Assembly: GCA_048887165.1 (NCBI GenBank)
Contig: JBHLJZ010000004.1
Span: 5,538-69,537, forward strand
Reading direction: 5' to 3'
Length of the DNA: 64,000 bases
Origin: Candidatus Hodarchaeota archaeon
Lineage (GTDB): Archaea; Asgardarchaeota; Lokiarchaeia; Sigyniarchaeales; SOKP01
The stretch's first letter is position 1. Each line of letters starts with the position of its first letter. Position numbers and translations under genes: made by a program. The notes below the pieces were generated by a model, which saw only the letters and a program-made list of their open reading frames with translations, had not been told where the DNA came from and did not search any database. Positions 12,139 to 62,413 of the stretch are shown piece after piece.

Positions 12139-12235
12139 ATAAAATATTTTATAATCTAAAAGAGAAATTTTTTTCACTTTTGGATTGATATTAAGAATTA
12201 TACAGAAAATTAGCTATTTTAAGGTTAGAAAAATC

Positions 12236-14545: not shown

Positions 14546-14557
14546 ATGAAAAAATAA

Positions 14558-14580
14558 TTTTTTTTAAATTTTCTTTTTTT
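14558..14580 (+). terminator. Oligo-T tracts, candidate archaeal terminator
   Basis: T8 (14558-14565) and T7 (14574-14580) directly after the stop at 14545. Confidence 0.35.
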
Positions 14581-14841
14581 AAAATTCTTCTTCAGATGGA
14601 ATATATCAAATAGGAAAAATAAGTTTACTTTGAACTTAGAATTATGGATAGCAAGGCCCATTGAATTTTAAACTTATATTCTAAATATTTGTTTCAGAAA
14701 AAAGTATACTTGTGCTTAATTTACGCCTAAATTGTTTTTTTAAGTAAATGATGTCAAATTTTAAATCTTAACAAAAGCGTTAAATACTCTTTAGTCAAAT
14801 ATTGAATATTAAAATTAAAACATAAATGCTAACTTTTAATT

Positions 14842-42945: not shown

Positions 42946-43069
42946 TCGACTAAAATTTATTCCTTAATAAAGTTAAATAAGTTATATAATAACTTATTAT
43001 ATAATATTAATGATAAAATAATGCTAATCGCTAATAACTAAATATAAATAATATCTTATAAAAAATATT

Positions 43070-43705: not shown

Positions 43706-43726
43706 GAATAATCAAATTGTGACATT

Positions 43727-44968: not shown

Positions 44969-44969
44969 G

Positions 44970-45704: not shown

Positions 45705-45734
45705 AAGTAAAACTGTATATCTTTCTTAACATTT

Positions 45735-47388: not shown

Positions 47389-49611
47389 ATGAAATCTAAA
47401 AATAAATATTTAATTAGTGAAGTAATTATCGTATATTTGATCTTTACTCTAACATTTGGTTTTTACGCAATTCCAATAAAAGTTGAATCATTAAGTCGGG
47501 ATTTTATTCCTAAATCTTCTCAATTCGTTCCTCGAAATATACGTATAGCCATTTATGATGAACCGAATGTTACTGTACCATCTTATGGTGAACCAGTTTT
47601 AACATATAATTATAATAATATTGAATATATTCTAACTACGGCTGGTTATACTGTTTCAAATTTAACTACTACCCAAATTTTGAATCATGAATTAACAACA
47701 GCAAAATTTGATGTATTTGTGCTAGTCGATAATCTTCCAAGAGAGAGTATTGTTAATTATGTAAAAGAATTTTGGCTTGGAGGAGGAGCAATATTATCGT
47801 TTGATAGTGCAATAAGTTACCTTTGTTATGCTGGGATTCTCCCCCCTGAATCTGAAGGAGATAATGGATACTTCTTATACTGGGATTACTTAGTTTCTGC
47901 AACACAAAACGTTACCTTACGGCATCCTATTTCGAAATCGTATGCTTTAGGAGAAAATTTTACTAATTTTAATTCTGATTTTGCAACTTTTTTCTGGAGT
48001 GCTTTAATGGGAACAAGTATATCTAGTGATTTATATAAAATCGCTACTATTAATGGGAATGATAATGCTGCTACAGTTGTAGCTTATGAGCCAACGATCT
48101 TTAGCGGAGGAAAAGTTGTACACATTCTCACTAATTTTCAATTAGACGCAGATGATCTTGTCGTAGATGCTGTGGAGTGGTTATGTCCAAGACCAAAAGG
48201 TCGAATTCTATTTGATCTGTCACATTTACCCTATTATGGAATTGATCCATGGGATACATTAGCTGATTATTATCCAAGATTTGAAATCATACGTGATTAT
48301 CTTGTAAATCGCTCTTATACAATTGATAAACTTTATCCTTCTGTAAGCGGGAATTTAACCACTGCAAATTTGGCTCCTTATGATGTACTTGTTATTGCCT
48401 TGTCCAATTATAACTTTACTTCCAGTGAAGTTTCAGTTGTAACAAATTGGGTTAATAGTGGAGGAAACCTTCTTATATTTGGAGAAAATACAATTCTGAA
48501 TACACAAAATGAAAATGTTAATTATTTATTGAAAAATTTCGATCTTAAAATTAATTTAACATCCTCAGGTTCAGGTGCTGCTACTTATCAAATAGAACAT
48601 CCCATTCATGAAGGTTGTAGTCAATTAACGGTTTCTGCTCCAGGAAAAGTTGTATATAGCGGTAATGCTTTTCCGATATTAGGTAGTGATGCAGATAATA
48701 TTTTTATTGCCGGACAAGAATATGGCGATGGACGTATAATTCTTATGTCAGATATTGCTCCTTTTCGAGACTCAACTATAATGAGTACCGATAATCTTCA
48801 ATACGGCATTAATCTCTTAAATTGGTTAACAGCATCCCAAGCCGAAGTTTTACTATATTTAGATCAAACAGGCCCACCAGATCCCAATGATAACTACTAC
48901 AGAGCTCCAGTCACTAACGCTCTTAATGATTTAGGCGTTCCATTCTATTTAACTTATACTATATATTACTTCAATCTAAGTATGAGCTTTAATGAATATC
49001 CTCTTGCCATAATTGATAATCCTGTAGCATATATTGGCGGTTATTTTAGTGATGTTTTAAATTATATGAAATCTGGCGGTCATTTAATAATAAGCACCTA
49101 TTCTTATGGTGTAACTTCTGGAGATCCGTTATGGGATTATTTGGGATTTGAACCTACTGGAGATACTTTTTCTACACCTCAACCTATATATATCTGGGAC
49201 AACACTCATCCAATTTTTAATACGCCTGCCGATTATGGGGCTACTTCAATAAGTAGTACATATAACTATGTTATTACTGATGTCTGCAATTTAACAATAT
49301 ATGGTAATGCTACTGCAATAGCGGGATTAACAAGTTCAGCGAGCTCAGAGGGAGTAGCTGTAATTCTTGGAGCTGAAGGCCGATCTATAGCTAATGCTAT
49401 GCTTGTGACTACTTATATAGATGATACTGACGATTCTACATACCCAGATGCTCAAGAGTTATGGGAAAACGAAATTGCCTATATGATGTCTATTATATAT
49501 CCACCCACAGAACCAGATGGATTTAATTGGTTATGGATAATTATTATTGCTGCTATTATTGTAGGAGCTTTAGCAATTATAATAATAATAATCCGAAAAC
49601 GTAAGAAATAG
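47389..49611 (+). CDS. Type-I surface protein, unknown ectodomain
   Basis: 740 aa. N-terminal anchor. C-terminal TM WLWIIIIAAIIVGALAIIIIII followed by RKRKK. NxS/T sequons. Confidence 0.6.
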   Translation: MKSKNKYLISEVIIVYLIFTLTFGFYAIPIKVESLSRDFIPKSSQFVPRNIRIAIYDEPNVTVPSYGEPVLTYNYNNIEYILTTAGYTVSNLTTTQILNHELTTAKFDVFVLVDNLPRESIVNYVKEFWLGGGAILSFDSAISYLCYAGILPPESEGDNGYFLYWDYLVSATQNVTLRHPISKSYALGENFTNFNSDFATFFWSALMGTSISSDLYKIATINGNDNAATVVAYEPTIFSGGKVVHILTNFQLDADDLVVDAVEWLCPRPKGRILFDLSHLPYYGIDPWDTLADYYPRFEIIRDYLVNRSYTIDKLYPSVSGNLTTANLAPYDVLVIALSNYNFTSSEVSVVTNWVNSGGNLLIFGENTILNTQNENVNYLLKNFDLKINLTSSGSGAATYQIEHPIHEGCSQLTVSAPGKVVYSGNAFPILGSDADNIFIAGQEYGDGRIILMSDIAPFRDSTIMSTDNLQYGINLLNWLTASQAEVLLYLDQTGPPDPNDNYYRAPVTNALNDLGVPFYLTYTIYYFNLSMSFNEYPLAIIDNPVAYIGGYFSDVLNYMKSGGHLIISTYSYGVTSGDPLWDYLGFEPTGDTFSTPQPIYIWDNTHPIFNTPADYGATSISSTYNYVITDVCNLTIYGNATAIAGLTSSASSEGVAVILGAEGRSIANAMLVTTYIDDTDDSTYPDAQELWENEIAYMMSIIYPPTEPDGFNWLWIIIIAAIIVGALAIIIIIIRKRKK

Positions 49612-49637: not shown

Positions 49638-50375
49638 TTATTTTTTGCCAACAACACCTACATACAACGTAGTTTCATTAATTCCGTCAATATCTAATAA
49701 TTTATTTAATTCATCATCATAGATTGCCCCTATTGTACAAGCTCCCAAACCTAATGATTCTACTACTAAGTACAAGTTTTGTCCTATATGTCCTGCATCT
49801 AAATAAATATATCTGTAACAGCGTTGTAAATATTTCCATTTTGATCGTCCAATTACAGCAGTTAAAATAAAAGTAACATTAGAATTAACAACCATCATTT
49901 GATCCAAACATCCTTCTGTAATATTTATAGAAAAATCACCAAGTTTTAACAATTCTAAACTATGCTCACGAATATTATAATGATAGATTCCTGGATCTAT
50001 ACCTTTTACGTTTAGAACAACTGGATAGATTTCAATTGGGAATAAACCTCCTGCGGAGGGTATAGTTCGAAAAGCAAACTGAGGAAAAACACGTGTCAAA
50101 CCAGATATCCCAAATAGCAATAAACTCAACTCTTCTAATGATAGATCTTCTTTTTTAAATTCTCTTGTTGACTTTCGGTTTTTTATTACATCCCAAAATT
50201 TAATTGAATCATCAAATTGAGGCTGTGGCAATTTTATATTTCTAATCGCATTAGGATAAGTTTTATATGTTTTAGGCTTATTTCCCCAATCTAAATAATG
50301 TTGAGGCAACTTCCCTCTAATATATTTTGATTTTTGTTGGAAATTATCTCCATAATTATCTAAATCTTTTTCCAT
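49638..50375 (-). CDS. SagB/ThcOx-type dehydrogenase (nitroreductase fold)
   Basis: 245 aa. Motifs RKSTREF and TIPSAGGLFPIEIY, with a YLDAGH-type FMN-fold C-terminus. Confidence 0.65.
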   Translation of the reverse strand: MEKDLDNYGDNFQQKSKYIRGKLPQHYLDWGNKPKTYKTYPNAIRNIKLPQPQFDDSIKFWDVIKNRKSTREFKKEDLSLEELSLLLFGISGLTRVFPQFAFRTIPSAGGLFPIEIYPVVLNVKGIDPGIYHYNIREHSLELLKLGDFSINITEGCLDQMMVVNSNVTFILTAVIGRSKWKYLQRCYRYIYLDAGHIGQNLYLVVESLGLGACTIGAIYDDELNKLLDIDGINETTLYVGVVGKK

Positions 50376-50534
50376 AAAATAAAATATATAGAATAAATTA
50401 AAAATTTTAGATTAATAAATTAAAATTCGCAATTAGAATGAATTTTTATCGTTAACGATATTGAATTAGTATGTTTAAACAGAAATTTTAAATATTTTTG
50501 AAACAATTTTATTTGGATTAGAGATGATCCAATT

Positions 50535-51506
50535 ATGAATCTTGAAAAAAGTTTAAAAAGAATACCTTTCTTAAGTTTTCTTGTATCTTATAAATGTACT
50601 AATGAATGTAAGCATTGTGCTCTTCAAGCATCTCCAAATCAAGACGATGTTTTAATGGAACTTGGGGATTTAAAGAGATATTTAGAAGATATTACTTCAA
50701 ATTATATCGTACAGGAAGTTGGTTTTTTTGGAGGAGAACCTTTACTCCATCCTAAATTATTAATTAGACTTATTGAAGAAGTAAAAAAATATGGTATTTC
50801 AAAGATAGGATTACCAACAAATGGATTTTGGGGAAAAAATGATGAAATTGCTAAGAAATATGCTCAAAACTTAAAAAGTGCGGGATTAAATCTTATTGGT
50901 TTTAGTGTTGACGCATTTCATCAAGATTTTATTTCGCTCGATGTCGTTGGTAGGGCAATAAATGCATCTCATGAAGCAGAAATTGAAACAATAATCTTGG
51001 TAGCCCAGACTCTAGGATCTGAAGATCAAATAAATCCATTTAATGAACAAACAAAAAAGATTACTGATACTCTTTCAAAGCAATTTCAGTTTTGCCAAGT
51101 AATAAAAAGTGAATTACAAGTGAGAGGAAGAGCCATGAGACTACTAACGGATTATTATCCAATGAGAACAATACCCTCAGATAAATGTCTTATTTTTAAG
51201 GTTCCTATGTTTATGATAGATCCCAATGGATGGGTTTTCCATCAATTATGTCATGGAATCTGTATTGGTAATGCCAAGGAAAATTCTTTATCTGAAATTA
51301 TACAAAATTTTAACTATAGAAAACACCCAATAATAAGCAAATTAGTAGCTAATGGAGGACCTAAAAATCTTCTTGAAATTGCGATTGAAAAGGGATATAA
51401 ACCTCAAAAGGGATATGCAGACAAATGTCACCTCTGTTCTAGTGTACGGAATTTTCTTCGTCCTTTTTACCCAAATATTCTTGAGCCTCCGAACTTATAC
51501 TTTTAA
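50535..51506 (+). CDS. Radical SAM enzyme with a SPASM/twitch-like C-terminal Cys cluster
   Basis: 323 aa. Radical SAM motif CTNECKHC (CxxxCxxC) and FFGGEP. C-terminus: C-x13-G-x6-CHGIC...GNAKENSLSEIIQNF...CHLC. Confidence 0.75.
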   Translation: MNLEKSLKRIPFLSFLVSYKCTNECKHCALQASPNQDDVLMELGDLKRYLEDITSNYIVQEVGFFGGEPLLHPKLLIRLIEEVKKYGISKIGLPTNGFWGKNDEIAKKYAQNLKSAGLNLIGFSVDAFHQDFISLDVVGRAINASHEAEIETIILVAQTLGSEDQINPFNEQTKKITDTLSKQFQFCQVIKSELQVRGRAMRLLTDYYPMRTIPSDKCLIFKVPMFMIDPNGWVFHQLCHGICIGNAKENSLSEIIQNFNYRKHPIISKLVANGGPKNLLEIAIEKGYKPQKGYADKCHLCSSVRNFLRPFYPNILEPPNLYF

Positions 51507-51555: not shown

Positions 51556-52428
51556 CTATATACCAAGCTTTTCTAATATTCCAGATAATCTTGTGCGATG
51601 AAATTTTAATCCTAACTCATCAGAACTAAACCCCATTGCTAAAGCGTAAAGCTCAGTGATATACATCACTGGAACATTGAATTCAGTCTCGTAGATTTTA
51701 CCTAAATCTCTCTGTCTCGTGTCAAATTGCTGATAGCACGCTGGACAATTGACTACGATAACATCTACATCAGCTTTTTTGATGGCATCCATCTTAATCT
51801 TTAAGTTCGCTAACCCATGTTCTTCATAAGCGTTAGTAACAGCGTTCCCACAGCATAAAACCTCTTCTCCGTATTCAACTACTGTTGCTCCACTTGCTTC
51901 AACAAGCTTCTTTAGCGTGGTTGGTTGCATGGGATCATCGGATTCCATCCATTCGGTAGGACGCATATAATGACACCCTGGATGTATAGCAACTTTTAAT
52001 TCACTAAGTGGCTTAATAATTGTTCCTTTAATTTTCTCTAAATTATCACTCAGTACATCAACAAAATGCTTAATGTCTATTGTACCCTTATAATTTTTCC
52101 CAATCTTTGCAAGCTCTTTATTAACCTTATCTATCTTCGATGAATCGTGCTTCAATTGATACTGAACTCCTCTAAGAGTGTTTGTGCATCCATTACACAA
52201 AGAAATAATGTCTTTTCCTTCAGCTTCAGCCAAGCATAAATTTCTCGCACCAAGTGCTAGCCAAGCATCGTTATCAAACGATTTCATGCCTGTAGGATCC
52301 GGACAACACGAAAAGTTTGTTTGTGATGTTTCGATTCCAATCTTATCAAAAACCTTACGCGAGCTGGCCTCGATGAATGGAATACGATTTCCAATAGTAC
52401 ATCCTTCAAACATTTTATATTCTGTCAT
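51556..52428 (-). CDS. hdrB: Heterodisulfide reductase subunit B-like (two CCG domains), copy 2
   Basis: 290 aa. Motifs CCPDPTG...CNGC and CCGN...CPAC. Confidence 0.85.
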   Translation of the reverse strand: MTEYKMFEGCTIGNRIPFIEASSRKVFDKIGIETSQTNFSCCPDPTGMKSFDNDAWLALGARNLCLAEAEGKDIISLCNGCTNTLRGVQYQLKHDSSKIDKVNKELAKIGKNYKGTIDIKHFVDVLSDNLEKIKGTIIKPLSELKVAIHPGCHYMRPTEWMESDDPMQPTTLKKLVEASGATVVEYGEEVLCCGNAVTNAYEEHGLANLKIKMDAIKKADVDVIVVNCPACYQQFDTRQRDLGKIYETEFNVPVMYITELYALAMGFSSDELGLKFHRTRLSGILEKLGI

Positions 52429-52446
52429 TTTCTTCTTACCCTCAAA

Positions 52447-52962
52447 TTATTTTAATTTTTTATCAGATCCAATGTTCTTCAGTAATTTTTGTATTTCACT
52501 TATATCTGGAGCTGCAACAGGAGGTAACCCTAATTGGGTTCTCCTTCTCTCAATTGCAGGTTGTGGAGGAATTGCTTTACCACTTTCATATACAGCTTTT
52601 GCTTGATTGTAAATAGGGTCTGGACCCTTCCCTAAAGCAATACTTTGATTTTTGAGTAAAGCAAAAATCTCAGTAAGTTCAATGCCTTGAGGACACACTT
52701 CATCACAAGTAACACAGACAGTACAACCCCATATTGTTAGTTCCTCTTTATTAAGAAGTAATTCTTCATGTCCTAAAAGAGTCATTAAGATATTTTGTCT
52801 AGGGTTATATCCTGACGTTTTGTAAGAATTTGTCGTTACTTTCGTTATAGGACAATTATCTGAGCATTTACTACATTGATAACAATATTTAAGTACATCC
52901 GCTCCAAGCTGAAAATCCGTTGCTACTTTCTTAAAATCGACACTTGTTCCCATAATTTTCAC
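52447..52962 (-). CDS. hdrC: Heterodisulfide reductase subunit C-like (2x[4Fe-4S]), copy 2
   Basis: 171 aa. Motifs CYQCSKCSDNCP and CTVCVTCDEVCP. Confidence 0.8.
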   Translation of the reverse strand: MKIMGTSVDFKKVATDFQLGADVLKYCYQCSKCSDNCPITKVTTNSYKTSGYNPRQNILMTLLGHEELLLNKEELTIWGCTVCVTCDEVCPQGIELTEIFALLKNQSIALGKGPDPIYNQAKAVYESGKAIPPQPAIERRRTQLGLPPVAAPDISEIQKLLKNIGSDKKLK

Positions 52963-53077
52963 TTTTTTTATTATTTTTTTACATATTTTACTTTTTAGGC
53001 TTTTGCCCCACGCAAGGGGTAGTTGTGTTCACTTTTTTTAGTAAACATTCATCCTAAGCCTATTTTCATATTTCGAG

Positions 53078-53317
53078 TTATTTTACTGCTTCAAAATACA
53101 TATACCATTGTTCTTCGTCTTCGAGAAAGTCTGTTCCTAAGTGCTTATGTTTTGTTTGTTTCGCTAAATCTCTTGGAACAGATTCACTTGCTGGTTTATA
53201 GTCTGTTATTACTTTTAAGACAGTTCCAGGTCTCATTTTCATGAGTTGTTTTTTAGTTTTTAAAGCTGGAACAGGACAAACTAAACCACAGACGTTTAAT
53301 TCCATATCAAATTTCAT
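53078..53317 (-). CDS. tusA: TusA-family sulfur carrier, copy 2
   Basis: Start reassigned to ATG 53317 (MKFDMELNVCGLVCPVPALKTKK), preceded by GGAGAG. This avoids overlap with the upstream gene. CPxP active-site motif present. Confidence 0.75.
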   Translation of the reverse strand: MKFDMELNVCGLVCPVPALKTKKQLMKMRPGTVLKVITDYKPASESVPRDLAKQTKHKHLGTDFLEDEEQWYMYFEAVK

Positions 53318-53348
53318 TTTAATTCTCTCCTTGATTATTTTTTTTAAT

Positions 53349-54491
53349 TTAATCACATATAATTGAAAATATTGGCTCATCCATAGAAGGATCAGCTTTC
53401 ATTTCTAATTCCATTAATTGAGCTAACCGAAGTGCTTCATATCTAGCTTTTTTAGGTTCAAGACCCGTTTCTTTCACAATATCAGTAATAGTGCTAGGAC
53501 CTTTCTCTGTTATATAGTCTAGAACTTGTTGTCTTGGAGTTTTTTCGAAGCTAAAGAGTTCGCGTTTTGCTTTAAAATCGATGGCTGTTTTCAAATCCTC
53601 TTCATTGACTTCACCGATATCAAATAAACCTTTTTCAATGGCACTTTCTACTAATTCCTTACCTCGCTCAGTCCAAGCTATAACGGTCGTATACCCCGCT
53701 GCTGAACCAACTTCACCAGCAGTGATATCAGAATAAATTGCTGGAAAATCTTGGCAATGTTTACAGTGTGCTTTACAGCTTTCACATCGCTTCCCATCTT
53801 GAAGGTCAAGATCTTCTGGATTAACTGTCTCTGATTCCTCCTCAAGTTCCTTCAATATATTTAGCGACATTGTCTCACCTATAAGTGTGCATCCACATCT
53901 TTTATCTGGATGGATTTGTGAACTACAAAATAACCCAATCTTTAATATCTCTCTATTCATGCTTTCTTCGATATTAGCAGCACCTCTCATTTCACATGGC
54001 ACACCAACAATTCCTACTGGATCAAAAGTCTCTCCAATGAGCTCAATTAGCCTTTCAAGGACACCCGAACGAATATAGACCACTCCAGCTTTTTCAACAA
54101 CTTTATTTGGATCTGAGACTCTTTCTGCTACTCTATCTTCATCTTGTTCTTGAACCATCACGATTTCACTAATAGTTTGATTCTCCAATAACTCTTTTGT
54201 TAGGGTTGTCACAAACCCTCCACTTGAAGCTTTAGCAAGAATTTCCTTATTTTTACTTCTTAAAGAATAAATACCTAAAGCTGGTTTAACTTCGAAGTTT
54301 TTTTGAATAACTTGTGGACAATTTTGATAACATCTTCCGCAGTCTTGGCCATCTTTCTCAAGTATACAATAATCTTTAAGTGTTGGAATCATATCTTTCA
54401 TTTCGATATGTTTACAAGAGCCCACACACAATCCACAGCCTTGGCAAAAGCCTTCGTCAATAATTTCAGATTTTAATAATTCATAACTCAT
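53349..54491 (-). CDS. FrhB/FdhB-family (F420-hydrogenase/dehydrogenase beta-like) flavo-FeS protein with an N-terminal ferredoxin motif and a C-terminal wHTH-like tail
   Basis: 380 aa. Motifs CQGCGLCVGSC and CGRCYQNCP. FrhB-like strings ASSGGFVTTL, GVVYIRS, and GIVGVPCEMRG. The C-terminal ~60 aa are helix-turn-helix-like. Confidence 0.6.
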   Translation of the reverse strand: MSYELLKSEIIDEGFCQGCGLCVGSCKHIEMKDMIPTLKDYCILEKDGQDCGRCYQNCPQVIQKNFEVKPALGIYSLRSKNKEILAKASSGGFVTTLTKELLENQTISEIVMVQEQDEDRVAERVSDPNKVVEKAGVVYIRSGVLERLIELIGETFDPVGIVGVPCEMRGAANIEESMNREILKIGLFCSSQIHPDKRCGCTLIGETMSLNILKELEEESETVNPEDLDLQDGKRCESCKAHCKHCQDFPAIYSDITAGEVGSAAGYTTVIAWTERGKELVESAIEKGLFDIGEVNEEDLKTAIDFKAKRELFSFEKTPRQQVLDYITEKGPSTITDIVKETGLEPKKARYEALRLAQLMELEMKADPSMDEPIFSIICD

Positions 54492-54493
54492 GA

Positions 54494-55729
54494 TTATCCC
54501 TCTTTAATTTTTATTTCCTTTACAATACCGATTGGATCAATTGTAAATTCTACTGAACCATTTTTGTAAGTTCCTTCAACTATTTCAAAAATTTGAGTTT
54601 TATAATCTTCAAAGTTGTCATTATCATCAATCTTCGACCTAAATCCTCCAAAAAATACATTTGATAAATTCATGTTTCCAGCAATGCTCCTGATTTCATC
54701 AGTGATTTTCTTATATTGAACTGGATCCTTGTTTTTAATTGCTTTTTGAAGTTGTTCTTCTAATTTTAATAGTTGATTTCTATATTTTTTAGTTTGTTCA
54801 CTTACTTCTATATTGTTAATTTCTTCATAGGTTTGAATAATTTTTAGTGTTAATGAGATTGAATGATCTCCCCCTAATAACCCTGAAATTAGTGGTAATT
54901 CTTCAAGCAGCCTTCCTGTGAAAACGTCTTCTAATAAGGTACCACTAGAAGGAATTCGACCTTTTGGTAATCCCGATGTTGGTAAAGTAAATCGAAAGAA
55001 ATTTCCTACTAAATCAGGTAGACTTGCTGTTAAGTCATCATCTTTATCTGCTAGCTTATCGGTAGCACCCTTTTCAGAATGTTCAGTAGCAATTTCAATA
55101 TTTCCCATAAGTGTTCCAAACATGCCTAACATTCTGATTCCAGAACGCTCTAAAATTGGTTTGCAACCTCTACATGGAGCGCTATAATCAATACATCGTT
55201 CTTTACATTCTTTAGAGACAAAACCATTACAAAGATATCCAAGATCATTGAAACATGTCTCTGCATCATCTAATTCAATTTGTCGTTTTACTTCTTCTAA
55301 GTAATCACAAGTTTTTTTCCTTCCGCACACAATACAAAGATTGTTTAATTTAGGGAGATCACTATCCTCAATCTCTAATTTCAGTTCCTCAATTTCCCCT
55401 AAACAACCATTAACATTAATTGATTCATCAATAAATTTACTTAAAGGAGATACATCATGACCTTTTTGATTGGCAAGAGCAAAAACGCCTCCAGTAGTAG
55501 CACAGTTTCCATAAGCAATCACTTTTTCCGAATTTATCTTTATTTCAGTTAAAATATCCTTATTCTCTGGCAATAAAAATCCAGTGATAATTGATACATC
55601 TGTTTTTTCCGATTTCCAATTTCTAGGATCATGAACAAATTCTATTTTATACATTGAATCTCCTCTCAAAAGAATAGTCTCATTGAAACATTTATTACAT
55701 CCATTAAATTGAAATATTTTAACATCCAT
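54494..55729 (-). CDS. [NiFe]-hydrogenase small-subunit-like (Oxidored_q6/MvhG-HydD-like) protein with a long C-terminal extension
   Basis: 411 aa. Proximal-cluster ligand pattern GCNKC ... YGNCATTGG ... VNGC. Further Cys cluster CIVCG...C...CRGC. The C-terminal ~200 aa are unassigned. Confidence 0.5.
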   Translation of the reverse strand: MDVKIFQFNGCNKCFNETILLRGDSMYKIEFVHDPRNWKSEKTDVSIITGFLLPENKDILTEIKINSEKVIAYGNCATTGGVFALANQKGHDVSPLSKFIDESINVNGCLGEIEELKLEIEDSDLPKLNNLCIVCGRKKTCDYLEEVKRQIELDDAETCFNDLGYLCNGFVSKECKERCIDYSAPCRGCKPILERSGIRMLGMFGTLMGNIEIATEHSEKGATDKLADKDDDLTASLPDLVGNFFRFTLPTSGLPKGRIPSSGTLLEDVFTGRLLEELPLISGLLGGDHSISLTLKIIQTYEEINNIEVSEQTKKYRNQLLKLEEQLQKAIKNKDPVQYKKITDEIRSIAGNMNLSNVFFGGFRSKIDDNDNFEDYKTQIFEIVEGTYKNGSVEFTIDPIGIVKEIKIKEG

Positions 55730-56183
55730 CTTTAAAAGTCCCCTCCTCTCTAATTGCGGTTGCTAATCGTTCTACAATATCGTCGAAATCTCCGACAGCT
55801 GTTTCTCCTTCTGCGGCTCGAGATGTATATTGATTCACAAACTGATCACTATAACCTAATTCTTTAAACAACTTTTTCATCAATTTAATTCTATGCATTG
55901 ATAAAATATTCCCATTAAAGAAATGACATGCTCCCAAACAACAACCTACACATGCAACTGCATCTGCTCCGTTGCTTAAAGCATCCATAATCTGAATAGG
56001 ACCGACTTGACCAGTACATTGAACTCTAACAATACGAATTGCAGGATTATATGCCATTCGGGCCACACCAGCTGTATTAGCTGAACCTTGCCCACATTCA
56101 TTACACATAAAAACTACAATATTTTCCATTTTTTCGAGCACTTCTGGCTCGATATATTCACATTCACTCATTTTCGCAAACAA
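55719..56183 (-). CDS. mvhD: MvhD/FlpD-type iron-sulfur subunit
   Basis: 154 aa. Motif FMCNECGQGSANTAG...IRIVRVQCTGQV...GADAVACVGC..GACH. Confidence 0.8.
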   Translation of the reverse strand: MFAKMSECEYIEPEVLEKMENIVVFMCNECGQGSANTAGVARMAYNPAIRIVRVQCTGQVGPIQIMDALSNGADAVACVGCCLGACHFFNGNILSMHRIKLMKKLFKELGYSDQFVNQYTSRAAEGETAVGDFDDIVERLATAIREEGTFKDGC

Positions 56184-58194
56184 CGCCTCCGCCTGATATG
56201 GCGATTATTTCATCTAACAGTTGTTCATCACTAAAATTCAAAAGTTGAATTGCTCCTGTAGGACAAGCAGGCATACACATACCACAAGATTTACAGGCAA
56301 CTTCATTCACCATAGGAGTTCCATCATCATTAATTTCAATTGCAGCTGGAGCGCACACTGTTTTACATAGTCCGCATCTAACACATAAATCAAAATCTAC
56401 TGAAGGAATTAACATCTCCTTTTCAATATATCCTCTAACAAGTGGGGCTGCAGCTATAGCTGCGGCATTACCTGCTTGGGCAACAGACTCGGAAATGTCT
56501 TTAGGACCTTGAATTGCTCCTGCTAAGAAAATTCCTCCTTTACTACTTAATGTGGGATTCATTTTAATGTGAAACTCTTTTAAGAACCCTTCTTTCGAAC
56601 GTAATACATGTAACTTTGATCCTAACGGGCCAATTCCCTCGGGCGGAACCATCGCTGCTGAAAGTACGACCATATCTGCTTTTAACTTTAAAGGTGTTTG
56701 ACTTAAAGTATCTTCAACTATAACTCTTAATTCTCCAGTAATAGGATCTCTTAATATTTCAGATGGCCGTCCTCTTATAAATCGGACTCCTACTTCTTGA
56801 GCAGATTTGTATAATTCTTCGAAGTTTAAGCCTGGAGTTCTTACATCAATATAGCAGATTGTAACATCTGTATCAGGATACATTTCTTTAATAATCCTAG
56901 CGTTTTTAATCGCAAACTTACAGCAAACTCCGGTGCAGTATTCATTTCCAACTTGGTCATTTCTGCTACCAACACATTGGATCATTACAATACTTTTTGG
57001 AATCTTTGCATCTGAGGGTCTTAAAATTTGACTATTAGTAAGCGAACCAGGTGCTAACATCCTTTCTAATTTTAATTGTGTAATCACATCGTCATATCCT
57101 TCTTGACCATAATGATAAGCTTCTATTTCAGAAGGATCATATTCATCATAACCTGCAGCAACTACTATTGAACCGACTTTAAATGTTTTAGTTTCTGGTT
57201 GCATATTAAAATCGACTGCTTGAACTGGACATACGTTAATACATGTTTTACATTCAATACAATTATTTTTATCCCTTACATAAGTTGCTGGAATTGCTTG
57301 TGGATAAGCTTTATAGATTGCGTTTCTTATTGACATTCCACTATCCCATTCGCTTGGCAACTCAACAGGACAATTAGCAGCACACTCTCCGCATGAAGTA
57401 CAATTATCCTTAACATAACGAGGCTTTATCTCAACCTCTACTTCAAAATTTCCCATCGAACCCTCGACATTTTTGATATGAGCGTTAGTGTATAGTTCTA
57501 CTAAAGGGTGATTTGCAACCCCATTAGTTAATGGGGAGATTGAACATTGTGGACATTCTAAAGTTGGAAATGTTTTATTCAATTGAGTCATATGACCACC
57601 TATTGTCGATAACCTTTCAATTAAATAAACAGGAATTCCTAATTCAGCTAAATCATAAGCAGAACGAAGTCCAGCAATACCTGCTCCTATAACTAAAGCA
57701 GCTTTAGTGGTAGGAACCTTACGAGTCTCAACATCTTCTAATTTTCTAGCTCTATTTACTCCCGCCTCAACCAGTTTCATTGCTTTTTGAGTAGCTTTAT
57801 CCTTTTCTTTCTGATGAACCCAACTATTAAACTCTCTTACATTTACTTGTTGATGTCTATGTTTGTTAAGACCCATTTCTTCAATAGTTCTTGCAAAAGT
57901 CCTTCCATGTTGATTCTTTGAACAAGATGCGACAACAGTACGATTTACACCTAAATCTTCTATAGAATCTTTAATCATTTGCACTCCTGGTTTAGAACAC
58001 ATAAACATATAATGTTCTGCTCTAACTACATTAGGTAAATCCTTAGCATAATCAGCTACTTTTGAAACATCAACCGTTCCAGCGATGTTATGACCACAAT
58101 GGCAAACAAATACCCCAATTCGGGGTTCTTCGTCAGATTCTATCCCACCCTTGATTTTGTCAGAACTTTTAACTTTTTCTTCTTTGATTGTCAT
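56164..58194 (-). CDS. hdrA: Heterodisulfide reductase subunit A, full-length type (FAD plus multiple [4Fe-4S])
   Basis: 676 aa. N-terminal VFVCHCGHNIAG. FAD motif VIGAGIAGLRSA. Fe-S motifs CTSCGECAANCP, CIECKTCINVCP, CVRCGLCKTVC, and CKSCGMCMPACP. Confidence 0.9.
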   Translation of the reverse strand: MTIKEEKVKSSDKIKGGIESDEEPRIGVFVCHCGHNIAGTVDVSKVADYAKDLPNVVRAEHYMFMCSKPGVQMIKDSIEDLGVNRTVVASCSKNQHGRTFARTIEEMGLNKHRHQQVNVREFNSWVHQKEKDKATQKAMKLVEAGVNRARKLEDVETRKVPTTKAALVIGAGIAGLRSAYDLAELGIPVYLIERLSTIGGHMTQLNKTFPTLECPQCSISPLTNGVANHPLVELYTNAHIKNVEGSMGNFEVEVEIKPRYVKDNCTSCGECAANCPVELPSEWDSGMSIRNAIYKAYPQAIPATYVRDKNNCIECKTCINVCPVQAVDFNMQPETKTFKVGSIVVAAGYDEYDPSEIEAYHYGQEGYDDVITQLKLERMLAPGSLTNSQILRPSDAKIPKSIVMIQCVGSRNDQVGNEYCTGVCCKFAIKNARIIKEMYPDTDVTICYIDVRTPGLNFEELYKSAQEVGVRFIRGRPSEILRDPITGELRVIVEDTLSQTPLKLKADMVVLSAAMVPPEGIGPLGSKLHVLRSKEGFLKEFHIKMNPTLSSKGGIFLAGAIQGPKDISESVAQAGNAAAIAAAPLVRGYIEKEMLIPSVDFDLCVRCGLCKTVCAPAAIEINDDGTPMVNEVACKSCGMCMPACPTGAIQLLNFSDEQLLDEIIAISGGGVVCENE

Positions 58195-59112
58195 TTAAAT
58201 TGCCCCCTCTTCCCTTTTTATTTCTTCTACCCCAAAAATGAAATTTCTGCCCATTAATTGATATTGAAGACCAATAAATTCTTGATCCATACCCATACAA
58301 TAGGCAACAAGCTGAGAAAGATGAATTACTGGATAATCATAATTAAAACTCTTATTTTTGTTCAAATAATCTTGTCCCGTCTCAAATTGTAAATGACAGA
58401 ACGGACAGATATCTAATATAAAATCTGGCTTAACCTCATCGATATTCTTCATTTTTTCGCTAAAAATTGTCATACTTGCATCACCTGAATATGCTTTTAC
58501 TCCACCTCCGGCACCACAGCAAGTAAGTTGTTCTTTGAATCTAACTGATTCTATTCCTAAAGCCTCAACAAATTCTTCGATAATTGTTGGGCCCTCTGAA
58601 CTTTCAATTTCTCTGATTCTAGTTGGTTTTAAAAAGTGACATCCATAATGAATAGCCGCTCTGGCATTCACTTTTCTTATAATATGATCTTCAATTCCCC
58701 AAGGTCCAATTTCGTATCCAAGTACTTCAGCTACGTGTCGGACATCTATCGTACCTTTATATTCGTAATCACCAATTTGTTTAAGCTTCTCATTTACTAA
58801 TTCACGATGTTCTTCATTTTCTTTCAAATGTTTATTTACTTCTTGAAGTGTTCCGAAACATCCATTACATACGGTTAAAATGTCCGCGTCTAATTGTTCT
58901 GCTATACATAAATTTCTCGCTGCTGCTACCATCCAATCAACTTTATTGAAAGAACGGAACACGCCAGGAGCAGGACAACAAGTTGCTTTTTCCATATCCA
59001 AAAGTTCATACCCTAGTTTATCCATAACAAATTTCGTTGATTTTTCTATAGCAGGATATCGATTCGGCATGAGACATCCTAAAAAAAATGCGAATGTATT
59101 TTCTTTAACCAT
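58195..59112 (-). CDS. hdrB: Heterodisulfide reductase subunit B, copy 1
   Basis: 305 aa. Motifs CCPAPG...CNGC and CCGAGGG...CPFC. Abuts the hdrA start with no gap. Confidence 0.9.
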   Translation of the reverse strand: MVKENTFAFFLGCLMPNRYPAIEKSTKFVMDKLGYELLDMEKATCCPAPGVFRSFNKVDWMVAAARNLCIAEQLDADILTVCNGCFGTLQEVNKHLKENEEHRELVNEKLKQIGDYEYKGTIDVRHVAEVLGYEIGPWGIEDHIIRKVNARAAIHYGCHFLKPTRIREIESSEGPTIIEEFVEALGIESVRFKEQLTCCGAGGGVKAYSGDASMTIFSEKMKNIDEVKPDFILDICPFCHLQFETGQDYLNKNKSFNYDYPVIHLSQLVAYCMGMDQEFIGLQYQLMGRNFIFGVEEIKREEGAI

Positions 59113-59115
59113 TTT

Positions 59116-59673
59116 TTATGCCTCCTCTTTATTCTTTTTTTCCTCCTTAACAGGAGGTAAATCGAACATATTTTTTTCAATATTTTTTAAATCTTTATCA
59201 TCTCCTTCCTGCTTGAACTTAAATGCAGTGGGAGGTAGTTCTTCTAAACCTAATTCGACTCTTCTTTTTCTTACTTCGTCATTTATCGGTACTGCATGAC
59301 CAAAGTTTTTTAAATATCCAACAACAGCCCTATGATTAGGTGAAATATTACCCCTTTTCGTAGCATAATTTCTTAATTCCATAATCACATCTGTAGGTCT
59401 TACATCTCTAGGACATCGCTCATAACATTGATAGCATGTTGTACATAGCCAAATATCTGGATCTTCTAATACCGATAAATCTCCAAGAACAACTTTTCGA
59501 ATAATCGAACGAGTTTTTAATGCAGTCCATCTACCACTTTCACAACTTGCAGTACATGTTCCACATTGAATACATTTCATAATATTTGATCTTCTCTCAA
59601 TGTCTTTGAAATATGCTGGATCAAAATCTTCATCCACCATATATTTCCTTTGTTGTTCTTCTGTTTCAGACAT
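59116..59673 (-). CDS. hdrC: Heterodisulfide reductase subunit C, copy 1
   Basis: 185 aa. Motifs CIQCGTCTASC and CTTCYQCYERCP. Confidence 0.85.
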   Translation of the reverse strand: MSETEEQQRKYMVDEDFDPAYFKDIERRSNIMKCIQCGTCTASCESGRWTALKTRSIIRKVVLGDLSVLEDPDIWLCTTCYQCYERCPRDVRPTDVIMELRNYATKRGNISPNHRAVVGYLKNFGHAVPINDEVRKRRVELGLEELPPTAFKFKQEGDDKDLKNIEKNMFDLPPVKEEKKNKEEA

Positions 59674-59718
59674 TTATTATCACCAATTTATTATCTTGAA
59701 AAAAAAAAAAAAATAAAG

Positions 59719-60144
59719 TTATAATGAGACAATCCTTCCACCATCAGCCATCTGTAAAAATGAGGCTGCTCCAACAGGTTCTTCCACGAAATCTAATAGA
59801 TCTTCTCTTTTAATCCCCATTAAATCCATTGTCATTTGACATGGATATAATTTCATATTACCGTTCTCAACAGCTTCCTTAATCATGCCCCATGGATCTT
59901 CAATTCCAAATTTTTTCATCCTTTTCAAAAAGATTTTTGCCCCCATTCCTTTCATAGGAAATGGCATTCCAGCAGCTTTGGGCTTAAATTTCTTTTGTAA
60001 AAGGTTTAAACCCCAGAAGGTAAAGAAAAAATTCATTTTAACATCCATCGCATCCCCTGTGGTGCCTAGGATCATCATCATTCCAAACTTTTCGAATGAT
60101 TTATCCTTTACAATAAAATTTATTGTTTCGGCCATATTTTCCAC
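59719..60144 (-). CDS. DsrE-superfamily protein (DsrE3/COG2210-like sulfur carrier)
   Basis: 141 aa. Motifs MMMILGTTGDA...FFFTFWG and the single conserved Cys context LYPCQMTMDLMGI. Confidence 0.6.
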   Translation of the reverse strand: MENMAETINFIVKDKSFEKFGMMMILGTTGDAMDVKMNFFFTFWGLNLLQKKFKPKAAGMPFPMKGMGAKIFLKRMKKFGIEDPWGMIKEAVENGNMKLYPCQMTMDLMGIKREDLLDFVEEPVGAASFLQMADGGRIVSL

Positions 60145-60283
60145 CTTTTTTTATTTTTTTTGATTTTTTTATTTTTATTTTGTTTTAATTAATTTTTTTG
60201 AAGTCAGCTTCTTGCTAACTTTACCATGATTTTTCTTGATTTTTTAAAAAAATTTTAAATTTAATTTATTAAAATTGATAACT

Positions 60284-60628
60284 TTATATCCACGAGATTA
60301 CTTTTTGACTACTATCTAAAAGGTCTACTAACTCACTATATTCAACAGGCTTTACGTTCCCATGTAATCGCTCAATTGGTATGCCTCGCGCATTCATATC
60401 TGGAATCATAGCATAAACAGATAAATCTAATCCTAACAATTCTTCAATTGCTTTTGGAAATCTTGCATTAATAGTGAAACCAATTACCCCATCATGAATC
60501 AGTACAAATTTGATTTCTGATCCTTTCTGAATTTGAGTCTTTAGAAGAGGTAAAAGTCTCTCTAAATGATTCCCTGTTCTTTCACTAAATCCGAATAAAT
60601 ATAATATATCCAATTTTTTTCCCTCCAT
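60284..60628 (-). CDS. dsrH: DsrH/TusB-like protein
   Basis: 114 aa. Motif VLIHDGV...VYAMIPDMNARGI. Its start ATG overlaps the dsrF stop (TAATG). Confidence 0.65.
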   Translation of the reverse strand: MEGKKLDILYLFGFSERTGNHLERLLPLLKTQIQKGSEIKFVLIHDGVIGFTINARFPKAIEELLGLDLSVYAMIPDMNARGIPIERLHGNVKPVEYSELVDLLDSSQKVISWI

Positions 60629-60996
60629 TAAAATCTAAAACAAACATCAGCTTGTTCTATTAAATCTGCTAATTCGGTTAAATTAATAATTTTAAGACTT
60701 TCATATTCGATAAGATCCTCTTCAGTCATTCCTGCTTCTTTAAGTGCTGAATCCATCACATATAGCTCCAGATCAGATAAATCCGCCATTTCAATTACCT
60801 CATCCATAACATCCATGCCAACAGCGTTTGGTTTAGCATTTTTATTTAGTAGATATACGGCATCTCCTGTAAATACTACTTGACAGCTTATATATTCTCC
60901 TAAGGCTACAAAACCAGATCCAATCCTTATTGCTTCTGCTGCTGAATTCTTGCCAACTGGTGATTGGTCAGTAATAACCACTACTGATTCGACCAT
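60628..60996 (-). CDS. dsrF: DsrF/TusC-like protein
   Basis: Start reassigned to ATG 60996 (MVESVVVITDQSP), 8 nt after GGAGGT. The track start is 61017. Motifs AAEAIRIG...VFTGDAV...LYVMDSALKEAG. Confidence 0.7.
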   Translation of the reverse strand: MVESVVVITDQSPVGKNSAAEAIRIGSGFVALGEYISCQVVFTGDAVYLLNKNAKPNAVGMDVMDEVIEMADLSDLELYVMDSALKEAGMTEEDLIEYESLKIINLTELADLIEQADVCFRF

Positions 60997-61000
60997 TTTT

Positions 61001-61369
61001 CTAACCTCCAGTTCCAAAAACTATTACTTTATCGGTTTCAACTGACCAGTTTGAGAAGTCTCCTAAACCTTCTTCAGTTGCGCCATCAATGAATTCATGT
61101 TCTTTAATTCCAGTCAGACTTACCCATGTGCTACAGCCAGCAACGGGAATTTTATTCTCAAGGCAGAAATCTTGAATTTTTTTTGGAAGGTTTCTAATTG
61201 AAGAACCACTGCTAATATCCTTTTTTAAGTTATAAACGCCTGAACCGTAGAAAAAGAAACCTTTGATTGTGTGTCCTTTTTCTATGATAGCTTTTGACAA
61301 TTCAATTAAAGAATCAACCGCTTCAAACTTATACGGCTCCGTACTAATAAAAAATGTATAAGAAATCAT
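61001..61369 (-). CDS. dsrE: DsrE/TusD-like protein with a conserved active-site Cys
   Basis: 122 aa. Motifs FFFYGSGV and IPVAGCSTW. Confidence 0.7.
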   Translation of the reverse strand: MISYTFFISTEPYKFEAVDSLIELSKAIIEKGHTIKGFFFYGSGVYNLKKDISSGSSIRNLPKKIQDFCLENKIPVAGCSTWVSLTGIKEHEFIDGATEEGLGDFSNWSVETDKVIVFGTGG

Positions 61370-61395
61370 CGTTCGTGCCTCGAATAATCAATACT

Positions 61396-61629
61396 TTATG
61401 CTTTTTTAATAAAGAAAACAACTTGACCGTTATTTTCATTAGTCTCAAGTAATTCATCGCCAGTTTTATGTAATAAAGCAGGAACATCCTTTAATGCCCC
61501 TTTATCATCAACAATTAGTTCTAAGACTTGTCCAGGATTCATCTTTTTTAATTCCTTTTTTGTCATTAATACAGGCATGGGACATTTCTTCCCAACTGCA
61601 TTAAGTGTTATATCAGCCATTTTTTTCAT
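61396..61629 (-). CDS. tusA: TusA-family sulfur carrier, copy 1
   Basis: 77 aa. Motif LNAVGKKCPMPVLMTKKELKKM (CPxP). Confidence 0.8.
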   Translation of the reverse strand: MKKMADITLNAVGKKCPMPVLMTKKELKKMNPGQVLELIVDDKGALKDVPALLHKTGDELLETNENNGQVVFFIKKA

Positions 61630-61912: not shown

Positions 61913-62413
61913 ATGGTTATAACAAATGATCTAAATGACTCTTTAGATGATATTGACAGAGAGATACTTGTATTACTACAAGACGACGCAAAGATCACAA
62001 TTAATGAGATTTCCGAAAAAGTAAAAGATCGTTTAGGATTAGACGAACCAAAAAGTGCAACCGCAATTAGAGCCAGAGTAAAAAGGTTAGAAAGGGATTT
62101 AATAAAGAAATACATGGCTATAATTGATTGTAGTAAATTAGGATATCGAGAAATGGTTATTGCCTCCCTTCGAGTGAATTCTCAACAGCCTATTGACGAT
62201 ATAAAAAAGAAAATCGAGGATTTGCAGCAAGTTAAATACGCTTACATCGTAACAGGAGAATATCCCCTTATTGCTATGTTCAAATGTTTAAACCATGAAG
62301 ATGCAATGTCTTTAATCGAAAAATTAAGAAACATGCCAGGGGTAGAAGAAATTAAAACTCAAATTGTCCTAGATAGGATAAAAGAAGACCATTCAATAAT
62401 CATTCCTGAATGA
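61913..62413 (+). CDS. Lrp/AsnC-family transcriptional regulator
   Basis: 166 aa. N-terminal HTH DDIDREILVLLQDDAKITINEISEKV. C-terminal RAM-like domain ...YIVTGEYPLIAMFKC. Confidence 0.8.
   Translation: MVITNDLNDSLDDIDREILVLLQDDAKITINEISEKVKDRLGLDEPKSATAIRARVKRLERDLIKKYMAIIDCSKLGYREMVIASLRVNSQQPIDDIKKKIEDLQQVKYAYIVTGEYPLIAMFKCLNHEDAMSLIEKLRNMPGVEEIKTQIVLDRIKEDHSIIIPE

Follow-up and report, generated by a model that had tools for sequence, protein, structure and literature searches.

Gene content and conservation of the cluster

The window analysed here is a 64,000 nt stretch of contig JBHLJZ010000004.1 (assembly GCA_048887165.1, Candidatus Hodarchaeota archaeon) with a GC content of about 30%. 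Between positions 51556 and 61629 it carries 14 consecutive open reading frames (ORFs) on the minus strand, in which genes for sulfur carriers of the TusA and DsrE families are joined to genes for a heterodisulfide reductase (Hdr), the connector MvhD and two further proteins, here called X and Y. The genes are given below in the order in which they would be transcribed, preceded by a divergent regulator gene. Domains were called with Pfam and NCBIfam, and numeric cutoffs are those of each family.

61913–62413 (+): Lrp/AsnC-family regulator, divergent from the cluster (Pfam HTH_AsnC and AsnC_trans_reg)
61396–61629 (−): TusA1, single-cysteine CPMP sulfur carrier (PF01206, 85 bits)
61001–61369 (−): DsrE/TusD-like protein with active-site Cys79 (PF02635 and TIGR03012)
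60628–61017 (−): DsrF/TusC-like protein (PF02635 and TIGR03010); overlaps dsrE and dsrH
60284–60628 (−): DsrH/TusB-like protein, cysteine-free (PF04077; TIGR03011, 49.8 bits against a cutoff of 49.2)
59719–60144 (−): DrsE_2 protein (COG2210, DsrE2/DsrE3-like), single-domain sulfur carrier (PF13686, 87 bits)
59116–59673 (−): HdrC1, two [4Fe-4S] clusters (TIGR03290, 179 bits against a cutoff of 160)
58195–59112 (−): HdrB1, two CCG motifs as noncubane cluster sites (TIGR03288, 374 bits against a cutoff of 345; two PF02754 domains)
56164–58194 (−): HdrA, 676 aa, five-domain bifurcating type (by alignment to methanogen HdrA)
55719–56183 (−): MvhD/FlpD, [2Fe-2S] connector (PF02662, 111 bits); overlaps hdrA and the X gene
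54494–55729 (−): X, 411 aa, MvhG-like with a 155 aa C-terminal domain (Oxidored_q6 / VhuG-like N-terminal part)
53349–54491 (−): Y, 380 aa, a 2x[4Fe-4S] ferredoxin domain, FrhB_N, FrhB_C and a C-terminal extension of about 65 aa (Pfam)
53078–53317 (−): TusA2, two cysteines in CGLVCPVP, Hdr-linked TusA subtype (PF01206)
52447–52962 (−): HdrC2, lineage-specific addition (TIGR03290, 75 bits, below the cutoff)
51556–52428 (−): HdrB2, lineage-specific addition (TIGR03288, 270 bits, below the cutoff)

The ORF of TusA2 extends over 53078–53380, but its real start is probably M22, giving a protein of 79 aa. A first-pass annotation, made by a model from the sequence and its ORF translations, had assigned these domains and described the genes as tightly packed. 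All of its domain calls were upheld, and the ORF coordinates bear out the tight junctions, with overlaps or gaps of 0–4 nt at dsrE/dsrF, dsrF/dsrH, hdrC1/hdrB1, hdrB1/hdrA, hdrA/mvhD, mvhD/X and X/Y. Wider gaps precede the DrsE_2 gene (139 nt), hdrC1 (45 nt) and hdrC2 (about 115 nt). The same gene content is found in an independent assembly (GCA_048886165.1, JBHLKX010000010.1) at 99.94% identity over 15.6 kb, so the arrangement is not an artefact of a single assembly.

Related loci were collected by a search with X in one genome per GTDB species, and their gene order was mapped by tblastn. The search gave 24 loci, all from Promethearchaeota (Lokiarchaeia), with 62–85% identity in X. Every locus that is long enough shows the same order, with the Lrp-type gene followed by tusA-dsrE-dsrF-dsrH-DrsE_2-hdrC1-hdrB1-hdrA-mvhD-X-Y-tusA2. 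The upstream part, tusA-dsrEFH-DrsE_2, is kept in about 16 species-level Lokiarchaeial genomes with sufficient flanking sequence, and tusA2 follows Y in nearly all loci that extend past Y. Retention of the core order in about 16 other species is far beyond chance.

The cultured Promethearchaeum syntrophicum MK-D1, whose genome is closed (CP042905.2), carries the same set as DSAG12_01139–01151, with an asnC gene inserted before hdrC. These orthologues are transcribed at similar levels, 182–348 RPKM (Imachi 2020, supplementary tables). In Thorarchaeota the order is rearranged to asnC, then dsrE-hdrC-hdrB-hdrA-mvhD-X-Y-tusA-dsrE-dsrF-dsrH, and a further tusA and a DsrE/DrsE_2 gene are close by. 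That the linkage outlasts rearrangement across two classes argues strongly for a functional tie between the sulfur carriers and the Hdr subunits, which is what the first-pass annotation had proposed. Loss of the gene order in relatives had been named beforehand as one of the outcomes that would refute that proposal; the order is kept in Lokiarchaeia, and the linkage in Thorarchaeota as well.

Redox subunits of the proposed complex

The first reading of the locus had recognised a full-length, bifurcating-type HdrA together with MvhD, and both identifications stand (PF02662 for MvhD). Residues 19–665 of HdrA align to residues 7–651 of methanogen HdrA with a score of 645 bits, while the match to the HdrA-like subunit of the sulfur-oxidising Hdr-like (sHdr) system (sHdrA, 6tjr) is partial, covering residues 340–588 with 131 bits. 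In an alignment to residues 2–646 of 5odc_A, E356 and K409 (5odc numbering) are kept, two residues important for the bifurcating flavin adenine dinucleotide (FAD) of HdrA (PMC12054007), and a cysteine occupies the position that is selenocysteine in Methanococcus. The iron–sulfur cysteines of HdrA are invariant in 26 sequences, and the cluster-ligand cysteines of HdrA, HdrB1, HdrC1, MvhD and X taken together are invariant across 23–29 homologues. This includes all eight cysteines of HdrC1 and the ten CCG cysteines of HdrB1. MvhD is 83–97% identical to its counterparts in relatives. Against Methanococcus maripaludis HdrB, HdrB1 scores 317 bits, and it has conserved the proton-pathway residues E87 and H154 (numbered as in M. 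maripaludis; PMC13518236). The sequence features of methanogen-type bifurcating HdrABC are present, namely a five-domain HdrA with its FAD residues, an HdrB with two CCG domains and an HdrC with eight cysteines, and on sequence grounds HdrA is a full methanogen-type bifurcating HdrA.

Residues 9–256 of X align with residues 10–295 of the hydrogenase small subunit MvhG (5odc_E), and the X family alignment keeps 12 cysteines, enough for a proximal, a medial and a distal cluster. A Foldseek search with the AlphaFold model of the whole protein returned solely small-subunit folds (hydrogenase small subunits and NuoB). The earlier description of X as hydrogenase small-subunit-like is upheld in its identity, but it had missed that X is an MvhG without a large subunit: the window holds no MvhA, either by tblastn or in a Pfam scan of ORFs of at least 120 aa, which is also the scope of the Pfam negatives given below. 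Compared with a group 3c Mvh hydrogenase, an MvhG with three iron–sulfur clusters and MvhD are both present, but MvhA with its NiFe-binding CxxC motifs is not.

The C-terminal domain of X may itself be a remnant of that missing subunit. By hhalign, residues 264–324 match residues 40–100 of a Lokiarchaeial MvhA (E = 0.002), and the segment aligned to the nickel-binding motif RICGIC reads LLGGDHSIS. An HMM of the domain, searched against the 1,078 ORFs of the fetched loci, had four MvhA proteins as its best non-self matches (E 0.009–0.04), in the same region. Modelled alone (pLDDT 60), the domain had no significant match in the PDB by Foldseek. That X is an MvhG fused to a dead MvhA fragment is a lead rather than a result. 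The X family is tiny: of the 1.84 billion representatives searched, 17 have E < 1e-30, and these are followed by ordinary MvhG at E of about 1e-10. The most distant members of the family are from Thorarchaeota. At NCBI, X proteins 76–83% identical to that of the window are labelled Odin-, Hermod-, Hod- or Heimdallarchaeota; a GTDB-based collection puts all of the close matches in Promethearchaeota, and the submitter labels look unreliable.

Y belongs to the FrhB family (FrhB_N, 45.6 bits with a cutoff of 22; FrhB_C, 70.9 bits with a cutoff of 23.3; Pfam gathering), with all NCBIfam equivalog scores far below their cutoffs. Its best relatives in the PDB, proteins of F420 modules among them, are 8rja_E / 8riu_B, the N-terminal, F420H2-oxidising half of Fsr, and FrhB; it also matches ElpB/FdhB-type chains (8rvu_E). 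A longer Y, of about 820 aa and with a Fer4_20 plus Pyr_redox_2 module inserted into FrhB_C, is found in MK-D1 and in every one of the 24 related Lokiarchaeial loci in which the gene is covered. The inserted module matches NF009410 (395 bits) and NfnA 9n5u (311 bits), as well as NfnB and GltD. Its second Rossmann motif reads GGGPVA, a GxGxxA pattern of the kind associated with NADP (PMC12054007).

The Thorarchaeal Y is genuinely short (345–346 aa); that of the window is short as well. The window protein keeps both flanks of the insert (GCTLIG; EE..NPEDL..RCxSC), from which it follows that this short Y, otherwise 73% identical to the long form, arose by a secondary in-frame deletion. The flank remnants rule out that it represents the ancestral Lokiarchaeial state. 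The same 380 aa Y, followed by tusA-hdrC2B2, occurs in a second population (metagenome contig P0121; HdrB2 91% identical), and this intact copy, along with the twin assembly, excludes an assembly artefact or a pseudogene. Calling Y FrhB-like, as had been done at first, was correct as far as it went, but overlooked that it is a deletion derivative of an FrhB–GltD fusion.

The last two genes, hdrC2 and hdrB2, have a different history. They follow tusA2 only in the window, in its twin assembly (L025) and on the P0121 contig, and are absent from this position in the 24 related loci, MK-D1 and Thorarchaeota. In two of the relatives (L022 and L024), tusA2 is followed by a SagB-like gene, which in the window lies past hdrB2 and a radical-SAM gene. 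HdrB2 orthologues (76–91% identical) are common in Lokiarchaeia, where, on three independent contigs, they lie directly downstream of genes for a 441 aa MvhG and a 434 aa VhuA-type [NiFe] large subunit. HdrB2 is 81% identical to an mvhGA-linked HdrB2, and HdrC2 is 67% identical to the mvhGA-linked HdrC2 of locus L026. With 35% identity to HdrB1 and a score of 220 bits to methanogen HdrB, HdrB2 is a paralogue in its own right; both HdrB2 and HdrC2 fall under their family cutoffs yet retain the motifs. Neither mvhA, mvhG nor yeeE occurs in the window. Judged by gene order and identity, hdrC2B2 is a recent relocation, in this lineage, from an Mvh (group-3c [NiFe]) hydrogenase operon.

This origin bears on the reading that the first-pass annotation had favoured, which saw in the order hdrC1B1A-hyp-hdrC2B2 the architecture of sHdr systems and, in the locus as a whole, a hybrid of sHdr and bifurcating Hdr. 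Type I sHdr is defined by shdrC1B1AHC2B2 together with LbpA (PMC11094781). At the window locus, MvhD, X, Y and TusA stand between hdrA and hdrC2 in place of sHdrH, and HdrA has 676 aa, whereas sHdrA is short (about 340 aa) and without ferredoxin domains. No gene for sHdrH, an LbpA/GcvH-type protein, a lipoate ligase or sulfite handling was found among the window ORFs by Pfam, in agreement with the earlier observation that the window shows no lipoate-binding protein. A search of a plasmid collection found no sHdrB there, and two distant HdrB-like genes. Linked TusA and DsrE-family transferases (two TusA, DsrEFH, DrsE_2) are a genuine point of agreement, as is, superficially, the order hdrC1B1A ... 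hdrC2B2. It is nonetheless extremely unlikely that the cluster encodes a sulfur-oxidising sHdr-type system, or a true hybrid, forming sulfite from sulfane sulfur bound to proteins, the reaction known from Hyphomicrobium, Aquifex and Sulfolobales: HdrA scores 645 bits to the bifurcating type against 131 to sHdrA, the sHdr accessory genes are missing from the window, and the hdrC2B2 adjacency is mvhGA-derived and confined to the window sub-lineage. On these grounds membership in sHdr is rejected, and the idea may be regarded as already largely refuted. Since hdrC2B2 normally accompanies mvhGA, the likeness to the sHdr order is a lineage-specific coincidence, and metagenome surveys should not take the locus as a sign of sulfur-oxidation potential.

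The tie between hdrC2B2 and mvhGA also touches the direction of the reaction. Run in reverse, as a confurcating complex, HdrABC would oxidise reduced ferredoxin together with carrier thiols or sulfide, yielding NAD(P)H, or H2 via MvhGA. The metabolic model of MK-D1 contains an electron-confurcating Mvh-Hdr with an XSH/X-S-S-X pair (Imachi 2020), and on thermodynamic grounds low-potential sulfur couples would favour such a reversal. There is, however, no hydrogenase large subunit at the locus or in the window, sequence does not reveal direction, and we regard the confurcating reaction as improbable here.

Sulfur carriers and neighbouring genes

The CPxP motif of both TusA proteins and the conserved cysteine of DsrE, pointed out in the first-pass annotation, were confirmed, and these cysteines are invariant among relatives. 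Cys79 of DsrE aligns with Cys78 of Allochromatium vinosum DsrE and Cys78 of Escherichia coli TusD, and is invariant in 19 sequences. Cys16 of TusA1 is invariant in 27 sequences (identity to relatives 57–82%), and Cys102 of DrsE_2 in 20 (identity 60–91%), where it aligns with the cysteine of the best PDB match, the Sulfolobus solfataricus protein 2qs7. DsrH has no cysteine and is the least conserved product of the cluster (about 50–64% identity). The locus has the overlapping three-gene set and the DsrE cysteine expected of DsrEFH/TusBCD systems, but not the DsrH cysteine of type I DsrEFH nor a DsrC/TusE acceptor, which was not found among the cluster genes (Pfam/NCBIfam) or, outside the cluster, in the scan of window ORFs of at least 120 aa. 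The DsrEFH proteins score far under the TusB, TusC and TusD equivalog cutoffs.

Conservation differs among the carriers. The median identity among relatives is 87% for TusA2, the same as for HdrA, and 82% for DrsE_2, with 58% for TusA1 and 53% for DsrH. TusA2, with identities of 79–96%, is conserved on a par with the redox subunits. It represents a subgroup (DYKPAxESVPR...FExVK) common to Lokiarchaeia, MK-D1 and Thorarchaeota and separate from TusA1. In 24 sequences a second cysteine lies four residues before that of the CPxP motif (CGxxCPxP, ending F[EQK][AT]VK), and the two TusA2 proteins without it (from MK-D1 and Thorarchaeote L034) end in FECVK, not FEAVK. This complementary pattern, although few independent events are involved, suggests that a resolving cysteine is required, as in DsrC.

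The carriers could be unrelated in function to their neighbours, with an ordinary HdrABC acting on a small heterodisulfide (CoM-S-S-CoB-like or the X-S-S-X of the MK-D1 model) and the Tus/Dsr proteins serving tRNA thiolation, molybdenum cofactor or iron–sulfur cluster assembly. In favour are the scores of HdrB1 and HdrC1 above the equivalog cutoffs for CoB-CoM reductase, the 317 bits of HdrB1 to its methanogen counterpart together with its conserved E87 and H154, and the automatic annotation of MK-D1, which calls the carriers TusA, TusD, TusC and TusB. Several observations make such a division of labour unlikely: the linkage holds over two Asgard classes despite rearrangement, each of the three lineages has a tusA directly after Y, the conservation of TusA2 and DrsE_2 is like that of the redox subunits, and no TusE or MnmA partner is encoded at the locus. 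The TusBCDE route, moreover, is bacterial, and we know of no CoM or CoB synthesis in these archaea.

A second association of Hdr and sulfur-carrier genes was seen in a related Lokiarchaeon (L026, GCA_019057575.1, 3803–10873), where mvhG-mvhA-hdrC2-hdrB2 has tusA-Sulf_transp(YeeE)-dsrE-dsrF-dsrH upstream of it in divergent orientation. The mvhGA-hdrC2B2 region there is surrounded by hypD/E/F/C maturation genes, and the arrangement is reminiscent of a synteny reported from sulfate reducers, the 'type II' tusA-yeeE-dsrEFH. In MK-D1, further hdrC′ (175 aa), hdrB′ (341 aa) and hdrA′ (660 aa) genes, divergent, lie beside tusA-dsrEFH (L033, 1–3069); HdrB′ is a third paralogue, 38–43% identical to HdrB1 and HdrB2.

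The occurrence of yeeE, of a thiosulfate-transporter family, with tusA and dsrEFH beside mvhGA-hdrC2B2 in L026 would suit an assimilatory role, in which sulfide is released for biosynthesis, with no energy conservation, from TusA/DsrE-bound thiosulfonates or persulfides derived from thiosulfate or sulfite. The moderate, housekeeping-like RPKM of the MK-D1 orthologues would fit as well, and a scheme of this kind has been sketched for another Asgard archaeon, Nerearchaeum, in a 2025 preprint. For assimilation alone, however, a bifurcating HdrA complete with its two ferredoxin domains would be expensive, and neither YeeE nor sulfite or thiosulfate genes were found by Pfam in the window. These organisms inhabit sulfidic sediment, which supplies free sulfide, and a purely assimilatory function appears quite unlikely.

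Other genes of the window were noted in passing. A third Hdr-related gene, encoding a 377 aa HdrD/GlpC-like protein (Fer4_8 and two CCG domains), is located at 21628–23525 (−); it overlaps a radical SAM gene and is followed by a weak PfkB-like ORF. Immediately beyond the cluster, at 49638–51506, a gene for a SagB-type peptide dehydrogenase (TIGR03605, 145 bits) stands beside a YydG-like radical SAM gene on the opposite strand, and the two may form a RiPP-type maturation pair. The radical SAM gene is missing at this place in relatives, tusA2 leading to SagB in L022 and L024, and the P0121 contig has a gene for an FAD oxidoreductase. A gene for a large protein with an IFT52 GIFT / DUF4350 domain (47389–49611, +) recurs beside the cluster in several Lokiarchaeia, and the one in MK-D1 (L033, 17622–19043) lies near an Arf/Roc-family GTPase gene. 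Three consecutive TIR proteins are encoded at 10466–18057 (+), one of 548 aa with a TIR_2 domain, one of 544 aa with a WD40 beta-propeller and TIR, and one of 1071 aa with LVIVD repeats, TSP3 and TIR, which may constitute an immune or NADase-type gene array. No Pfam match was obtained for the 1380 aa ORF at 32568–36710 (−) or for several ORFs of 211–475 aa at 41701–47162.

Proposed mechanism and relation to known systems

Gene content, cofactor residues, synteny and MK-D1 expression together are consistent with a hydrogenase-less, flavin-fed HdrABC-MvhD complex that would reduce persulfides or disulfides carried by TusA and DsrE while reducing ferredoxin. We give this proposal about an even chance of being correct; for complex formation, electron donor, substrate and direction, we infer the following. 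The input arm, X-Y, would be a derivative of a [NiFe]-hydrogenase from which the catalytic large subunit is gone. Electrons would pass from a hydride donor to the flavin of Y, then through X and the [2Fe-2S] cluster of MvhD to HdrA's bifurcating FAD, from which one branch would lead via HdrC1 and HdrB1 to an S–S bond and the other to ferredoxin. Most Lokiarchaeia would use NAD(P)H as the donor, taken up through the NfnB/GltD-type insert of Y; the window lineage would depend on whatever the FrhB-like part binds, for example a deazaflavin or some other carrier in reduced form.

The oxidant would be sulfane sulfur or a disulfide on the co-encoded carriers. Given the conserved linkage, the best candidate is sulfane sulfur bound to a carrier, or else a di- or trisulfide of TusA2. 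TusA1, DsrEFH and DrsE_2 would deliver the sulfur and the two-cysteine TusA2 would present it to the complex in the manner of DsrC, with hdrC2B2, moved in from the Mvh operon, providing a second reductase arm.

A number of points weigh against this proposal. HdrB1 is very near the CoM-S-S-CoB reductases in score (317 bits) and has the same proton-pathway residues, so that a small-molecule heterodisulfide is also a possible substrate. On the carrier side, DsrH is cysteine-free and no DsrC or TusE was identified among the cluster genes, and the second cysteine of TusA2 varies in position, lying near the C-terminus in MK-D1 and one Thorarchaeote. The X C-terminus shows weak homology to MvhA (E of about 0.002–0.04, with Foldseek not significant), and F420 biosynthesis is not established in these organisms, the searched part of the MK-D1 supplementary tables having shown none. 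By thermodynamic reasoning, persulfide/sulfide couples are perhaps too negative for NAD(P)H-driven ferredoxin reduction, which leaves the direction uncertain.

A more far-reaching version of the proposal would have the nickel-free X-Y module feed electrons from NAD(P)H or a deazaflavin into HdrABC throughout Loki- and Thorarchaeia, with TusA2, charged with sulfane sulfur by TusA1, DsrEFH and DrsE_2, as a DsrC-like protein 'heterodisulfide' and with sulfur or polysulfide reduction driving ferredoxin reduction as an energy-conserving step. This is rather unlikely; if true, TusA2 would be the long-unknown X-S-S-X of the MK-D1 model, and hydrogen–sulfur syntrophy models of eukaryogenesis would gain a concrete enzyme.

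Hdr complexes are central to every Asgard metabolic model, in organisms for which CoM and CoB production is not known to us, and a conserved and expressed operon of this kind offers a testable candidate both for the substrate of Asgard Hdr and for the entry of sulfur into energy metabolism. Loki- and Thorarchaeia being the closest relatives of eukaryotes, the cluster suggests what their Hdr may reduce. Y documents the gain of an NAD(P)H domain in Lokiarchaeia and its later loss in the window lineage, and the window copy is a derived form of the cluster, having lost the GltD module and acquired hdrC2B2 from an Mvh operon.

The statement in the first-pass annotation that this is not a described complex holds in part. 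The MK-D1 orthologues were listed, uninterpreted and with automatic Tus names for the carriers, by Imachi 2020, where the main text deals only with MvhADG-HdrABC and Flx-Hdr and with the unknown XSH/X-S-S-X pair. The 2025 preprint on Nerearchaeum proposes, in a similar way, an Hdr acting on TusA/DsrE-bound persulfides, and papers on the Asgard selenoproteome note hdrA-mvhD pairs, but not this cluster. A literature search gave no description of the X-Y module, of the FrhB–GltD fusion and its loss, or of the cross-class linkage of Hdr and carriers.

Among known systems, the cluster is close in its core to MvhAGD-HdrABC of hydrogenotrophic methanogens (5ODC and related structures). HdrA, HdrB1, HdrC1 and MvhD are closely homologous to the methanogen subunits and retain every cofactor ligand, and X is homologous to MvhG over its entire length. 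Unlike that complex, the one proposed here has no MvhA, an additional C-terminal domain in X, and a FrhB-family flavoprotein in the place of the catalytic subunit; sulfur-carrier genes are co-encoded, and CoM-S-S-CoB is an unlikely substrate.

FlxABCD-HdrABC of Desulfovibrio and other anaerobes is NADH-dependent and is proposed to reduce DsrC and ferredoxin. The proposed route, from NAD(P)H through an MvhD-like connector and HdrABC to a protein-borne sulfur centre and ferredoxin, is alike. No FlxA, FlxB or FlxC is encoded at the locus, however: what stands between mvhD and tusA2 is an MvhG-like and an FrhB-like gene, neither of them similar to Flx or sulfhydrogenase beta/gamma, so that the input is of MvhG-like and FrhB/GltD type, and the carriers are TusA, DsrEFH and DrsE_2 rather than DsrC. 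MK-D1 has separate Flox sets elsewhere in its genome (Imachi 2020, supplementary tables).

With the TusA-DsrEFH-DsrC relay of Allochromatium and TusBCD-TusE of E. coli, the cluster shares the dsrE-dsrF-dsrH set, the DsrE cysteine and an adjacent tusA, but its DsrH is cysteine-free, DsrC, TusE and DsrAB are lacking, and the set is linked to Hdr. With sHdr-LbpA (PMC11094781) it shares Hdr-like B and C subunits linked to TusA and DsrE-family proteins, among them a DrsE_2-type protein with a conserved cysteine; the differences lie in the bifurcating HdrA, the presence of MvhD, X and Y, the lack of sHdrH and LbpA, and an hdrC2B2 adjacency that is not ancestral. Type III HdrA with GltD (PMC12054007), like the NfnB and DsrL modules, provides a precedent for an NAD(P)H-FAD-2x[4Fe-4S] module inserted into an Hdr system, although the insertion here is in the FrhB-like Y and not in HdrA, and was lost again in the window lineage.

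A parallel for the input arm is Elp-Hdr, an F420H2-dependent, nickel-independent module in which a truncated, cofactor-less FdhA relic (ElpA), an FdhB/FrhB-family protein (ElpB) and an MvhD homologue (ElpC) lead to HdrA (PMC12350162, Nature 2025). The relic at the window locus would derive from the small, and possibly also the large, subunit of a [NiFe]-hydrogenase, where ElpA goes back to FdhA. Further differences are the ferredoxin domain at the N-terminus of Y, joined in most Lokiarchaeia by an NAD(P)H insert, and the lack of a methanogenesis context. In both cases a dead relic subunit, a flavoprotein of the FrhB/FdhB family and an MvhD-type connector would feed the FAD of HdrA, and X-Y would represent a second, independent route to a flavin-fed Hdr input without a metal-containing catalytic subunit.

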